Made by a program: the position numbers and the translations under genes. Shown one piece after another: positions 37,022 through 42,160 of a DNA stretch of 55,742 bases. Source of the DNA: an uncultured Bacilli bacterium (lineage in GTDB: Bacteria; Bacillota_I; Bacilli_A; RF39; UBA660); the NCBI GenBank assembly GCA_944372415.1, contig CALVZA010000014.1, forward strand, positions 1-55,742. Direction: 5' to 3'. The notes under the pieces were generated by a model. It was not told the origin of the DNA and did no database searches. It saw only the letters and a program-made list of their open reading frames with translations. The first letter of the stretch is position 1; the number at the start of each line of letters is the position of its first letter.

Positions 37022-37375
37022 CTATTCAACACATACACTACTATTAGTTCCAGCTAAATCTAAAAGAAAATTCAATAATACAGGCAAGAAAAATAAAATA
37101 ATAGCATACATAAATCTTTTTAATAATTTTTGAAAAGCTTTTTTAACATCTTTTTCATCTTTAGCAGTAACAGCCTTTATGAAATCATAAGAGCTTAATC
37201 CTATGACTAATAAAGGAACAACAACCTTTAAAAAATTAAAAATATTTTGCAAATCAGTTTTCAAATCTCCCCAACTATCACAACTTAAACCATCAGCAAA
37301 AACTATAGTTTTAAAGCCAAATAAAACTAAATATATGTACAAAAATATATATATAATTTTTTTATTCTTCTTCAT
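37022..37375 (-). CDS. VirB2/TrbC-like pilin
   Basis: Signal peptide (VFA/D) then helical hairpin KVVVPLLVIGLSSYDFIKAV...KRFMYAIILFFLP. Confidence 0.72.
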   Translation of the reverse strand: MKKNKKIIYIFLYIYLVLFGFKTIVFADGLSCDSWGDLKTDLQNIFNFLKVVVPLLVIGLSSYDFIKAVTAKDEKDVKKAFQKLLKRFMYAIILFFLPVLLNFLLDLAGTNSSVCVE

Positions 37376-37423
37376 TAAATTTCCTCATTCTAAAATTAGT
37401 ATTATACACATAAAGTATAACAC

Positions 37424-37450
37424 AAAAAAAAACAACAGTAAAGTTGTTTT
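37424..37450 (-). terminator. Intrinsic terminator after pilin 37463..37816
   Basis: AAAACAAC-TTTACT-GTTGTTTT plus U-run. Confidence 0.65.
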
Positions 37451-37462
37451 ATAAGTAAAAAA

Positions 37463-37816
37463 TTATCTACAATTACTTGGATGTAAAAAACATTCTTCAC
37501 AAACAGAGAACCCTGCTGCATCTTTATTAGAATTATAATCATTAACTAATCCAAATACCCATAATATTATATTCGGAATTAAGAAAATAACTATACCAGC
37601 GATAACTCTATAAATTAATCTCTTAGTTTGTTTCTTAATTTCATCTTCTTTTTCTGCAATTACTGCTTTACCAAAATCAAACATACCTAATGCAATAATT
37701 AGCAAAGGAATTGCTATTTTAAACACTAATAAAACATATCCTATTATTTGAATAACGTCTTTCATATTAGTACAAAAAGATGAAATATCAACTGCACCAA
37801 AACTTAATAAACTCAT
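37463..37816 (-). CDS. VirB2/TrbC-like pilin (probable major subunit)
   Basis: KIAIPLLIIALGMFDFGKAV...RVIAGIVIFLIP, C-terminal CxxC; own promoter and terminator. Confidence 0.72.
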   Translation of the reverse strand: MSLLSFGAVDISSFCTNMKDVIQIIGYVLLVFKIAIPLLIIALGMFDFGKAVIAEKEDEIKKQTKRLIYRVIAGIVIFLIPNIILWVFGLVNDYNSNKDAAGFSVCEECFLHPSNCR

Positions 37817-37840
37817 AATATACCTCTTCTCTCTACATAT

Positions 37841-37869
37841 ATTTTAAAAAATATAACTATATATGTCAA
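37841..37869 (-). promoter_or_regulatory. Near-consensus sigma-A promoter of the pilin gene
   Basis: TTGACA-17 nt-TAAAAT. Confidence 0.75.
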
Positions 37870-37875
37870 TATTTT

Positions 37876-39687: not shown

Positions 39688-39721
39688 TTATATATCCTAT
39701 CCTTTCTTATTATATATTTTT

Positions 39722-39750
39722 ATTATACCAATTTTATATTTAAATACAAG
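39722..39750 (-). promoter_or_regulatory. Sigma-A promoter of the Flp/TadE/TadZ-like genes
   Basis: CTTGTAT ... TG-G-TATAAT (extended -10). Confidence 0.6.
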
Positions 39751-39766
39751 AAAAAAATAACTTTTT

Positions 39767-41230
39767 TTAATCTAATTTTACAATTTTATTATATTTATAA
39801 ATATTAAATTCATCATCTTGATATATATTTTTAATTAATTTGTTATTTTCTAAAAAAATATTTAAATTATTATCTTTAGATATTAAAATATATTCTATAT
39901 TATATTTATCAAATATATCTATATAATTCTTCCCATTTATTTCCATAAACTCAGTAAAATAATCATATTTTTTATTAAATTCTATTGTATATAAATCTGC
40001 TCTACTATCAAACATACATTTAATATCATTAAATAACAAATAACTTCCATACTTATATTCATTATATATTCTTATATTTTTATAATCTAAATTATTTTTT
40101 ATATAATTAACTGCTTCAACTGGATAATTATCTAAAAAATTTTCTTTATTAAATTTATTATAAATATTATTAATACAAGGATACCAAATAAAACAAATAA
40201 TGCAACTACTAATAACTACTGTATAAAAATATTTGTAATTTTTTAATTTAATATTTTTTAATTTTTTTAAATCAATATATTTTACTAATACAAAACTACT
40301 TAATAAAACAAATAAAGTCTCATGCCTTCTAGAAGATAACATCATTATAGTTAATCCTAATAATAAGAAAATATCATTAAGTTTTAATTTTTTATTATGC
40401 AAAATAAACAAAATTATAAAAATATAAACAACTAATAATTTAGTACTCCATAATAATAAAGGTTGATGTTCTATTATATAATATTGAGATACTCCTCTTA
40501 AAGTATTAAATAAATAAGTATAAGGAATAAATTTTAATGGTGTAAGCAATCCCATTAATAAACAAATAATAAATGAAATTATAAGTAATTTAATATTATA
40601 TTTATCATAATAAAATTTAAGATTTAATTTTTTTTGTTTTATTATTTTTACAAATAAATATTCTACAAAGAAAGGTAAAAATAATAAAAATATAAAAGGC
40701 CATACAGCAACATGTAAATTAGCAATTAATAAAGAAATAATAGATAAATAAAATATATATTTTTTATTTTGAGTAACGTTTAATCTAGTAATATTATAAT
40801 AAAACATCATAATTAAACTATATGTAATTATATGTGCTCTACACATTGCATAATTTTTAATTAATATAATTGAAATAATCATTATTATAAAAGAAACTAA
40901 TTTACTATTACATAATTTTTTTAAACAATAATATTGAATAATACCAACAAACATGTAGGCTATTAAAGTAAAAATATATATGCCTTTATAAGAAAAATAT
41001 TTATATATAACAAATACTAATACATCAAATAACCAATGTGGATATGTATAACTTAAACTATTAATCCATGAATAATGATCTTTAAAATCAATGCCATATT
41101 TAAAAATATCTTTACCTATTTTAATCGAATAAAAAGTATCATTAGTAAAATTAATATCTAAAAAATTAACTATAACTAAAATAAAAGTTACTAATAATAA
41201 TATTATTATATAAAAATATTTCTTAGACAT
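39767..41230 (-). CDS. GT-C fold polytopic membrane glycosyltransferase-like protein
   Basis: Many TMs; first loop NDTFYSIKIG...DHYSW...HWLF, ANLH, YPVEAV, NEYKYGSYL, FDSRADLY. Confidence 0.65.
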   Translation of the reverse strand: MSKKYFYIIILLLVTFILVIVNFLDINFTNDTFYSIKIGKDIFKYGIDFKDHYSWINSLSYTYPHWLFDVLVFVIYKYFSYKGIYIFTLIAYMFVGIIQYYCLKKLCNSKLVSFIIMIISIILIKNYAMCRAHIITYSLIMMFYYNITRLNVTQNKKYIFYLSIISLLIANLHVAVWPFIFLLFLPFFVEYLFVKIIKQKKLNLKFYYDKYNIKLLIISFIICLLMGLLTPLKFIPYTYLFNTLRGVSQYYIIEHQPLLLWSTKLLVVYIFIILFILHNKKLKLNDIFLLLGLTIMMLSSRRHETLFVLLSSFVLVKYIDLKKLKNIKLKNYKYFYTVVISSCIICFIWYPCINNIYNKFNKENFLDNYPVEAVNYIKNNLDYKNIRIYNEYKYGSYLLFNDIKCMFDSRADLYTIEFNKKYDYFTEFMEINGKNYIDIFDKYNIEYILISKDNNLNIFLENNKLIKNIYQDDEFNIYKYNKIVKLD

Positions 41231-41261
41231 ACTTCAATTTTCCTTTCAAAAATAATTATTT

Positions 41262-41288
41262 AAAAAAACTACATTTTTTAATGTAGAA
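41262..41288 (-). terminator. Intrinsic terminator after the adhesin-pilin gene
   Basis: CTACATT-AAAA-AATGTAG plus U-run. Confidence 0.6.
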
Positions 41289-41296
41289 ATTTTAAA

Positions 41297-42160
41297 CTAA
41301 TCTTCACTTACACTACAACTAGTTGCATTAGACGGATCTAATAAACAAGAAACACAAGTTTTATACTTATCCTGTTCAATTAAATTTAACTTTTCACTTA
41401 AACCAAATACAGCATAAACCAAATTTGGAATAAAGAATACAAATAACCCAGCAAATAATCTAACTCCTAAAACTTTAAGTTGCTTATTTAAACTTTTCTC
41501 ATCTTTATCTATAACTGATTTAAATAAATCATATGTTCCAAAACCTATAATTAATAACGGAATGCATACCTTAGCAATCATTAAAAGATATCCAAAAAAA
41601 CGTAAAACCTTTTTCATAGAATTTTCATCACAAGGATTTTGTGCTACATACAAGTCTTCACAAGCAGTTTTATTTTTATTCCATTTACATGCATTCCTAG
41701 TACATTCTTCTTCTATTGTTATAGAATCACATGCCTTACCAGTAGCAACATCACTTCCCGCGCCACTTCCACCATTAGTTCCATTATCAGAAACAGTAGC
41801 ATTTTTCTTAGTAAAAGTTACATCTCCAGCAGATTCTCTATTATCATTATTACTTCTAGTCTGAACATGTGCTTGGCAACTATATGTTCCATTACGTAAA
41901 TCACTAGTAGATTTTCTTCCCGTTATTTTTTCTTTAGTATAATCTCCTGCATATAAAGTTATAGTAGTATTAATATTAGCACCAGTACATTCTAACCAAA
42001 CCCTTCTTATACCAGCAACTGAAGCTTCATAAGAATAAATTAATTCTTCAGTACTAGAATCCCATGTAGTACTTGAAGCTATAGCATGTACATCTACTTT
42101 ACAAAAGGTGAATATTATAAATATAAGTAAAAAACAAGATATCTTCTTATTCATACTCAT
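41297..42160 (-). CDS. VirB2-like pilin with a large Cys-rich N-terminal domain (minor/tip pilin; start MSMNKK)
   Basis: Signal peptide (VHA), beta-rich and Cys-rich region, C-terminal KVCIPLLIIGFGTYDLFKSV...RLFAGLFVFFIP and CVSC. Confidence 0.72.
   Translation of the reverse strand: MSMNKKISCFLLIFIIFTFCKVDVHAIASSTTWDSSTEELIYSYEASVAGIRRVWLECTGANINTTITLYAGDYTKEKITGRKSTSDLRNGTYSCQAHVQTRSNNDNRESAGDVTFTKKNATVSDNGTNGGSGAGSDVATGKACDSITIEEECTRNACKWNKNKTACEDLYVAQNPCDENSMKKVLRFFGYLLMIAKVCIPLLIIGFGTYDLFKSVIDKDEKSLNKQLKVLGVRLFAGLFVFFIPNLVYAVFGLSEKLNLIEQDKYKTCVSCLLDPSNATSCSVSED

Follow-up and report, generated by a model that had tools for sequence, protein, structure and literature searches.

The DNA analysed here, called the window throughout, is contig CALVZA010000014.1 of assembly GCA_944372415.1 at its full length of 55,742 nucleotides (contig C14). 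It comes from an uncultured Bacilli bacterium (GTDB lineage Bacillota_I; Bacilli_A; RF39; UBA660) whose genome comprises 987 kb in 60 contigs, with 23% G+C and 83% completeness. Beside the genes of a type IV secretion system (T4SS), three open reading frames (ORFs) each encode a two-helix membrane hairpin. They are named p1 (nt 37022–37375), p2 (nt 37463–37816) and p3 (nt 41297–42160), the last with the hairpin at its C-terminus. The minus strand carries every gene of the region, and all three hairpin ORFs were confirmed there. Comparisons were made with 80 related loci taken with 8-kb flanks, a length that limits several of the counts given below. Records of the relatives bear the titles uncultured Bacilli, Tenericutes, Mollicutes or Erysipelotrichaceae and, in a few cases, other names; judging by the isolate names, the samples came from gut or faeces.

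The original prediction described the three products as pilins with the common signature K-x-x-[VI]-P-L-L-x-I-x5-D-x2-K-[AS]-V...R...F-x-[LI]-P, and the translations and their alignment show this motif in p1, p2 and p3. BLASTP relates p1 to p2 (3e-13, 41% over 49 residues), p2 to p3 (1e-23, 41% over 99 residues) and p1 to p3 (1e-11). The p1 and p2 families are also homologous as profiles (hhalign 99.1%, E 6.5e-19). The three are true paralogues. Their paralogy, together with the conserved order p3...p2-p1-VirB6-VirB3-VirB4, bears out the proposal of one family tied to the T4SS. Two hidden Markov models (HMMs), one of the three hairpins and one of 191 relatives, were searched against the six-frame translation of the genome. 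Both find p1, p2 and p3 only, at E 1e-28 to 1e-54, and the next-best match has E 0.012; the count of paralogues in this 83%-complete genome is three. Four weak matches were inspected, three from the hairpin-HMM searches (including that at E 0.012) and one a weak match to the Pfam family PF18895 (T4SS_pilin). They were read as an MscL-like protein (assigned by reading), a type IV pilin of the GFTLAE type, a multi-pass membrane protein and noise, and were rejected as further paralogues.

p2 is a headless hairpin protein of 117 residues and the most conserved of the three paralogues. C15 precedes helix 1, while C106-x2-C109 and C116 follow helix 2, and the helices are joined by a loop rich in Lys, Arg and Glu. 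In 35 homologues of p2 these four Cys, like the loop GMFDFGKAV..E..KK..KRL, show little or no variation. Directly upstream of the gene lies a promoter-like site, TTGACA-17-TAAAAT, followed by the ribosome-binding site AGAGAAGAGG (nt 37841–37869). The site matches at 11 of 12 positions, the best score between nt 36800 and 43500, and TTGAYA-N16-18-TAnnWT occurs upstream of p2 in 19 of 32 close loci. Just 3′ of the p2 stop codon is a terminator-like stem-loop, AAAACAAC-TTTACT-GTTGTTTT, with a T-run (nt 37424–37450). The p2–p1 spacer as a whole folds with −16.5 kcal/mol, and the −10-like elements for p1 come after this stem-loop. The stem-loop motif stands 3′ of a short hairpin gene in 28 of 75 loci, 23 of them with TGnTAYAMT within 40 nt; in some loci the stems are altered yet still pair. 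The promoter and terminator calls are pattern matches. Read from its own promoter-like site and ended by its own terminator-like hairpin, p2 would be the bulk subunit. A prediction of a four-copy p2 complex, made without controls, gave no verdict (score 0.00 against a mark of 0.42) and speaks neither for nor against such a complex.

p1 also has 117 residues, with a signal-peptide-like N-terminus. The original prediction noted Cys flanking the hairpins, with a CxxC...P..C arrangement in two of them; this holds for p2 and p3, and p1 has instead C32 before helix 1 and C115 three residues from its end. C32, P54, K79, R87, P98 and C115 are invariant in 14 sequences of the p1 type; the two Cys, the only invariant ones, stand before helix 1 and 3–5 residues from the end, respectively. 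The stop codon of p1 (nt 37022–37024) falls inside the Shine-Dalgarno sequence of the VirB6-like gene, AGAGGTGAG, 10 nt from the probable VirB6 start, ATG 37011. Orthologues of the VirB6-like protein begin with MNL, in line with that start. This arrangement suggests that p1 is translationally coupled to VirB6 and made in step with the machine.

p3 is the head-bearing member, with 287 residues. Its start at ATG 42160 is backed by homologues that open with MSMNK or MNMNK, the ORF list alone giving GTG 42211. A signal peptide occupies residues 1–26, and the hairpin with its tail residues 178–287 (nt 41300–41629). The structure model has a mean predicted local distance difference test (pLDDT) value of 76. 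Residues 28–118 (nt 41807–42079) form a beta-sandwich head with two Cys, modelled at pLDDT above 90. Residues 144–177 (nt 41630–41731) form a Cys module containing C144, C153, C158-x-W, C167 and P-C177, modelled as a short helix and a beta-hairpin at pLDDT 66–72. The five Cys of the module are invariant across the p3-type family (21 sequences), and the C-terminal tail has three invariant Cys. What was described as an extra exported Cys-rich domain of about 170 residues is composite rather than one domain, being made of signal peptide, beta-sandwich head, disordered Gly/Ser linker and 5-Cys module. Foldseek with the p3 model returned only generic beta-sandwiches of the Ig, FnIII and C2 kinds at E about 1e-3, and an Atlas search with the head gave leads below 0.9 only. 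A terminator-like stem-loop, CTACAT-TAAAAA-ATGTAG with a T-run, was read by eye 3′ of the p3 stop (nt 41262–41286); the terminator scan missed it because the scan requires three G-C pairs.

The head of p3 is the part that changes. Of the 51 homologues found besides p3 itself, only 8 align along its full length, and its head is present in no more than 5 of these (P0122–P0126). In the nearest relative, whose p2 is 89% identical, the Cys module and hairpin of p3 are 69% identical over 151 residues while the heads have no similarity, and the p3 counterpart of the next relative has no head at all. Of the 191 hairpin ORFs in the related loci, 74 carry at least 70 residues ahead of the hairpin. Clustered by sequence, these heads form 45 groups, of which 35 have a single member. 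The idea of swappable heads, with variable N-terminal domains, is thus borne out, down to replacement of the head between close relatives.

Upstream of p3 are genes for surface proteins. The product of cad372 (nt 42147–43265) has a cadherin-like domain (PF12733, 1.2e-14) and a C-terminal transmembrane (TM) anchor, and occurs in 29 of 80 loci; cad900 (nt 44029–46731) encodes a large protein with cadherin-like domains (PF12733, 1.7e-17, four stretches) and occurs in 23 of 80. The ATG of p3 lies within the final codons of cad372; this overlap of 14 nt ties the adhesin cluster to the T4SS, as had been proposed. p3 would then be the last gene of the adhesin operon, an accessory made together with the adhesins.

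The architecture common to the family, from AlphaFold2 (AF2) helices, hydropathy segments and alignments, is a two-helix membrane hairpin with a charged loop. In 183 of the 191 hairpin ORFs a Cys stands before helix 1 and another after helix 2. The commonest patterns are one Cys before and three after (94 ORFs) and one on each side (48 ORFs). A Cys on each outer tail is thus a hallmark of the family's sequences. From the way the charges are distributed, both ends would lie outside and the loop in the cytoplasm.

The order cad900-(o218)-cad372-p3-o83-o159-o355-p2-p1-VirB6-VirB3-VirB4N-VirB4C-hydrolase recurs among the 80 loci, in which p1 is present in 51, VirB6 in 50, VirB3 in 43 and VirB4N in 41. 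A related locus has 1–6 hairpin ORFs of 72–528 residues, with the hairpin always C-terminal, and at most six hairpin genes stand in tandem directly upstream of VirB6 (L044, L056). The hairpin is found in 142 of 151 genomes of the order and in 82 of 86 genera, with genome sizes of 0.6–1.6 Mb. Outside its own family it is found in 1 of 111 genomes of the class, representing one of the 23 other families sampled. A tblastn search with p2 against 72,556 plasmids gave no match. A global search with the p1-type profile returned 10,306 cluster representatives at E≤0.001, of which 6,486 stay within E≤1e-10. Among the 150 best of these 10,306, the protein always ends with the hairpin; 88 of the proteins are longer than 250 residues, and 148 contain a Cys within their final 12 residues. 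Only a few members have a name, and NCBI lists these as hypothetical proteins from metagenome-assembled genomes of Bacilli; the p1-type matches listed are close relatives bearing Bacilli names only. Directly adjoining the T4SS and adhesin cluster are, on one side, the S10 ribosomal protein operon along with a single plus-strand GT2 glycosyltransferase gene and, on the other, the gene for RNase J (nt 22022–23681 and 47234–48865). RNase J flanks the cluster in 3 of the 80 loci too, and the 8-kb flanks seldom reach that far. The possibility that the locus is a recently acquired mobile element was considered and rejected. Because the system is near-universal in the clade, shares the RNase J flank and has no relaxase of the three families sought, the T4SS is, by these signs, a vertically inherited core system of this clade.

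The curated gathering cut-off of PF18895 is 26.6 bits. Matches above it occur in 14 of 41 genomes of the same taxonomic family, and in 1 of 14 control genomes at that stringency. The ORFs with such matches are 93–425 residues long, except that of the source genome itself, which lies in the 797-residue frame of the VirB6-like protein. Four of the above-cut-off matches (genomes G007 and G108) coincide with matches of the p2 profile. At E≤0.01, 31 of 35 p2 homologues match PF18895, and a precomputed PF18895 match is recorded for 29 among the 120 p1-type homologues listed. By sequence, p1, p2 and p3 are divergent relatives of PF18895, their membership lying at the level of the family, through homologues over the cut-off.

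The VirB6-like gene (nt 34660–37038) encodes an extended protein of 792 residues if read from GTG (the probable start being ATG 37011). It matches NF045848 (1.5e-15) and NF045889 (6.4e-13), both below cut-off; these are transmembrane families of Mycoplasma integrative and conjugative elements. From N- to C-terminus the protein consists of a TM hairpin, a middle domain containing Cys, a TM bundle (residues 319–443) and a long final domain. Its N-terminal hairpin (nt 36664–36852) resembles PF18895 at 28.4–30.2 bits, above the cut-off, and is a fourth hairpin of the locus. PF18895 matches 8 of 13 orthologues at E≤0.01, and hhalign of this hairpin with the p1 family gives only 34%. The N-terminus of VirB6 from Agrobacterium fabrum pTiC58 (L110, nt 4955–5842) has a weak match, 21.9 bits, to the classical pilin model PF04956. 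In either kind of system, a pilin-like hairpin may form the start of VirB6.

The other parts of the machine follow. A 104-residue protein with two TM segments (nt 34333–34647) is called VirB3-like from position only; no family matches it, and it takes the same position as the PrgI-family gene of the Bacillus thuringiensis plasmid pBMB67, which has the nearest plasmid VirB4 (29% identity). VirB4 is divided between a TrsD-like ORF of 186 residues for its N-terminal part (nt 33786–34346; NF045975 4e-18, model positions 96–282) and an ATPase body of 600 residues (nt 31991–33793; NF045975 1.6e-105, below the curated cut-off). The two ORFs (nt 31991–34346) overlap by 8 nt and are found split in 41 and 38 of 80 loci, respectively, and also in pBMB67. 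A frameshifted pseudogene was considered and rejected, since the split is kept in 41 of 80 loci and fits the TrsD arrangement; because it recurs across related loci, the split is natural. The accessible text of PMC12102498 describes a TrsD-VirB4 arrangement for the pGO1 subclass and Patescibacteria. The next gene (nt 29914–31974) encodes a cell-wall hydrolase which, from its M23 peptidase and lysozyme domains, would take the VirB1 role. A VirD4-type coupling protein of the CD1115 family (nt 23695–25974) matches at 4.1e-89, over cut-off. Between hydrolase and VirD4 are four minus-strand genes (nt 26030–29899) for proteins of 234, 599, 166 and 168 residues, whose only match is a weak one to GDSL in the 599-residue protein; one of them may be the VirB8-like part that a Gram-positive T4SS would be expected to have. 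With VirB4, VirD4, a VirB6-like protein and a wall hydrolase together, the cluster is by gene content a T4SS of the monoderm mating pair formation (MPF) FATA type. A search of the 83%-complete genome for the relaxase families PF03432, PF02486 and PF01076 found none of the three, and PF03432 is present in only 2 of 31 genomes of the family.

Three further genes stand between p3 and p2. o355 (nt 37876–38943; 355 residues) is present in 46 of 80 loci, and a CbiA match in 1 of 13 orthologues (E 0.001) makes it possibly a degenerate ParA/TadZ-like protein. o159 (nt 38924–39403) encodes an exported protein of 159 residues with an N-terminal TM segment and four Cys, in 44 of 80 loci and of no family. 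o83 (nt 39436–39687; 83 residues) is present in 42 of 80 loci; a near-invariant N-terminus, MKEASGELSMTA, and a TM segment are followed by four Cys, and 2 of 13 orthologues match archaeal Pilin_N weakly (E 0.014). Many exported proteins of the locus (p1–p3, o83, o159 and the adhesins) are Cys-rich with even Cys counts, yet no DsbA-like, VKOR or DsbB gene was found in the 83%-complete genome.

Genes for a type IV pilus lie elsewhere in the window, on the minus strand at nt 5642–8025, and encode a PilC-like T2SSF protein and an A24 prepilin peptidase. A 499-residue pilin with a GFTLAE leader is encoded on another contig (C4, nt 13771–15267, minus strand). Because these three kinds of gene are present, the organism also has a type IV pilus system. 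The class III leader of type IV pilins, which is short, has Gly as its final residue and precedes a hydrophobic helix carrying Glu at +5, does not occur in p1, p2 or p3.

We consider it somewhat probable that p1, p2 and p3 are paralogous pilin-like hairpin subunits, relatives of PF18895, of a chromosomal, apparently relaxase-less T4SS of MPF-FATA-like type that is core to small-genome gut Bacilli. The pilus, the disulfides and the major, minor and tip roles of the original prediction would be further steps, and the roles are drawn solely from the transcription signals. Each hairpin would insert with both ends outside and its basic loop in the cytoplasm. The N- and C-tails would then be clamped through their Cys, by a disulfide or, in the four-Cys type, possibly by a metal, as the conservation of these residues suggests. 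T-pilin and TrbC are cyclised head-to-tail, and the clamp could be functionally comparable to that closure. The shared loop motif might be what VirB4 and VirB6 take hold of to extract the subunits, which they would then stack into a short pilus or wall conduit. p2 would supply the bulk of it, p1 would be produced in step with the machine through its coupling to VirB6, and p3 would add an exchangeable, outward-facing head for target recognition. Insertion, extraction and stacking are drawn here by analogy with VirB2 systems, as the accessible text of PMC12857230 describes them.

Several results weigh against the subunits being pilins of this kind. No pilus has been observed in any Gram-positive T4SS, according to the accessible text of PMC12857230. 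The PF18895 cut-off is reached by none of p1 (20.3 bits), p2 (18.9 bits) and p3 (no match). At loose thresholds this short model matches in 11 of 14 control genomes, so that sub-threshold matches alone mean little, and the label 'pilin' of PF18895 is itself a prediction. PF04956 (TrbC/VirB2) has no match on p1, p2 or p3, its best match in the genome being elsewhere at E 0.13. hhalign against VirB2 of A. fabrum pTiC58 gives 0.1% for the p1 family and 1.4% for the p2 family, a comparison of low sensitivity with a single-sequence reference, and PF18895 itself does not match pTi VirB2 or TrbC even at E≤10. The AF2 model of p2, with helices at residues 19–53 and 56–93, is of only moderate confidence (mean pLDDT 65). 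Fold searches with this model do not discriminate: Foldseek finds nothing at E≤0.001, and VIA-align finds generic helical hairpins at Z 5.6–6.8, with no pilin among the 50 matches listed; a profile search of the PDB matched no solved structure. p2 has no signal peptide. As to the clamp, searches of the 83%-complete genome for DsbA-like (PF13462), VKOR and DsbB genes gave none, and the bacterium presumably lives in an anoxic habitat. Because these genes were not found, a metal site is a live alternative to a disulfide for the type with CxxC...C and an N-tail Cys; it is not an option for the two-Cys p1 type. The term 'VirB2-like' in the original prediction holds for architecture and T4SS context and is not supported as strict homology; with no link to VirB2 or TrbC, it therefore describes architecture and context only.

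The hairpins could also be T4SS parts that do not polymerise, namely fixed translocon subunits or anchors, much as VirB2 is needed in non-piliated systems, with heads displaying adhesive domains beside the channel. This is a tentative possibility, less than likely in our judgement. It would agree with the lack of any known Gram-positive T4SS pilus, with the position of the most conserved part, the loop, which would face the cytoplasm, and with the VirB6-like protein, where a similar hairpin is an integral membrane part. p3, moreover, appears to be co-transcribed with TM-anchored adhesins. Yet the headless p2 is the most conserved member and has its own promoter-like site and terminator-like hairpin, which suits a bulk subunit better than a stoichiometric one. 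Arrays of up to six paralogues and 6,486 clusters likewise resemble variable pilin arrays more than channel parts.

The position of o355, o159 and o83 between p3 and p2 in 42–46 of 80 loci raises the question of whether the hairpins belong with these genes, as a possible Tad- or type-IV-pilus-like set, and so with another surface fibre rather than the T4SS. The weak leads to ParA/CbiA (1 of 13) and archaeal Pilin_N (2 of 13) point that way, as do PilC and prepilin peptidase in the window, but these family leads are far below any cut-off. The arrays adjoin VirB6 even where the trio is undetected in the stretch (L043, L044 and L055, with the upstream flank shortened by the contig end in L043 and L055), p1 appears translationally coupled to VirB6, and the hairpins lack the class III G-F-T-L-x-E leader, unlike the genome's own type IV pilin. 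We hold this explanation to be quite improbable. Still more improbable is a merely compositional likeness to T4SS pilins, with unrelated small membrane proteins (holin-like, immunity or regulatory) that happen to lie in the locus. PF18895 is indeed a short TM-hairpin model with weak matches in many genomes, and no solved structure is linked to the family. Against this, relatives exceed the curated cut-off, where controls match in 1 of 14 genomes, and the synteny with VirB6, VirB3 and VirB4 is conserved across 86 genera. The family is also not found in the 72,556 plasmids, and is largely confined to one clade and near-universal there.

Pilin-like subunits of a T4SS remain our preferred reading, and the closest described system, compared through the Pfam family and published descriptions, is that of the PF18895 arrays in the chromosomal T4SS of Patescibacteria (Southlakia epibionticum ML1 and Nanosynbacter lyticus TM7x). 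From the accessible text of PMC12102498 and PMC12857230, these are arrays of 2–11 pilin-like genes averaging 25% identity, and they are essential in S. epibionticum. The same sources state that Gram-positive T4SSs are without VirB2-type pilins, Patescibacteria being the sole exception. The two systems have in common the Pfam family, at family level, and a monoderm MPF-FATA-type machine with VirB4, a separate TrsD-like ORF, VirB3/PrgI-like and VirB6-like parts. Both have tandem divergent paralogues next to the machine, and both, as described, are chromosomal, mostly without a relaxase and found in reduced-genome hosts. The S10 operon and RNase J setting recalls the placement at highly expressed chromosomal sites reported in PMC12102498. 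The present host, in contrast, belongs to the Bacillota (Bacilli), a lineage that both papers, in their accessible text, call pilin-less. The p1–p3 of the window score below the Pfam cut-off, and many members of their family bear large variable N-terminal heads. Paired tail Cys are a hallmark here, whereas the accessible text of PMC12102498 nowhere uses 'disulfide', and cysteine comes up there a single time, in a different context.

The classical VirB2/TrbC/TraA pilins (PF04956; pTiC58) are likewise small, with two hydrophobic helices and a basic loop, and their gene adjoins VirB3, VirB4 and VirB6. Signal-peptide-like leaders on p1 and p3 are a further likeness, and the VirB6 N-terminus has a weak pilin-model match in both, to PF04956 in pTi and to PF18895 here. 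They differ in that no sequence or profile similarity is detectable; the present proteins have longer outer tails with Cys, there is no outer membrane to cross, and no VirB5 was recognised. The Cys clamp may replace the cyclisation of the classical pilins.

In the Bartonella Trw system, as described in the accessible text of PMC12857230, each locus also has several variable pilin paralogues, proposed to broaden target binding. There the pilin body and a separate VirB5 vary, whereas here variation lies in the N-terminal head fused to a conserved hairpin; a further difference is that Bartonella is diderm. The conjugation-type pili of the archaeal Ced and Ted systems (PMC9905601, accessible text) are VirB2-type pili on cells without an outer membrane; they are archaeal and are set beside the present family by description only. 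pBMB67 shares the order of a small ORF, VirB6 (TrbL), PrgI/VirB3, the VirB4 N-terminal ORF and the VirB4 body, as well as a CD1115-type VirD4. Its small upstream membrane protein of 126 residues is, however, unrelated to the hairpins (hhalign 1.8%, no PF18895 match), and the plasmid carries a MobP3 relaxase.

The sequences point to PF18895-type pilin-like hairpins with Cys-paired tails and exchangeable heads in Bacilli; from there we infer a polymer, a Cys chemistry and a biological role. A literature search over titles and abstract beginnings returned no description of such proteins in Bacillota, although the supplementary tables of PMC12102498 might list matches outside Patescibacteria. In this modular family at least 45 unrelated heads are joined to a conserved hairpin; the family is also very large and near-universal in one clade of uncultured gut Bacilli. 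If the hairpins polymerise, they would form the first T4SS pilus in Bacillota, with a built-in means of changing target specificity, and would hint that reduced-genome gut bacteria depend on cell-to-cell contact. A relaxase-less chromosomal T4SS with pilin-like arrays is essential to the epibiotic life of Patescibacteria. It is conceivable, though we think it rather unlikely, that this family of gut Bacilli has inherited a core relaxase-less T4SS of the same kind, sister to or source of the Patescibacteria system, and that it builds a Cys-clamped pilus with swappable heads for docking to other gut cells and exchanging material with them.

Two further proteins were observed in the window. Inserted here between p3 and o83 is the gene for a 487-residue protein (nt 39767–41230, minus strand), which has about 10 TM segments and matches no family of Pfam or NCBIfam; only 3 of 80 loci have a homologue, and at a guess the protein could be a membrane glycosyltransferase-like enzyme. 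A 1537-residue protein (nt 50658–55271, minus strand) has two stretches matching FtsK/SpoIIIE and may be FtsK or an EssC-like secretion ATPase.

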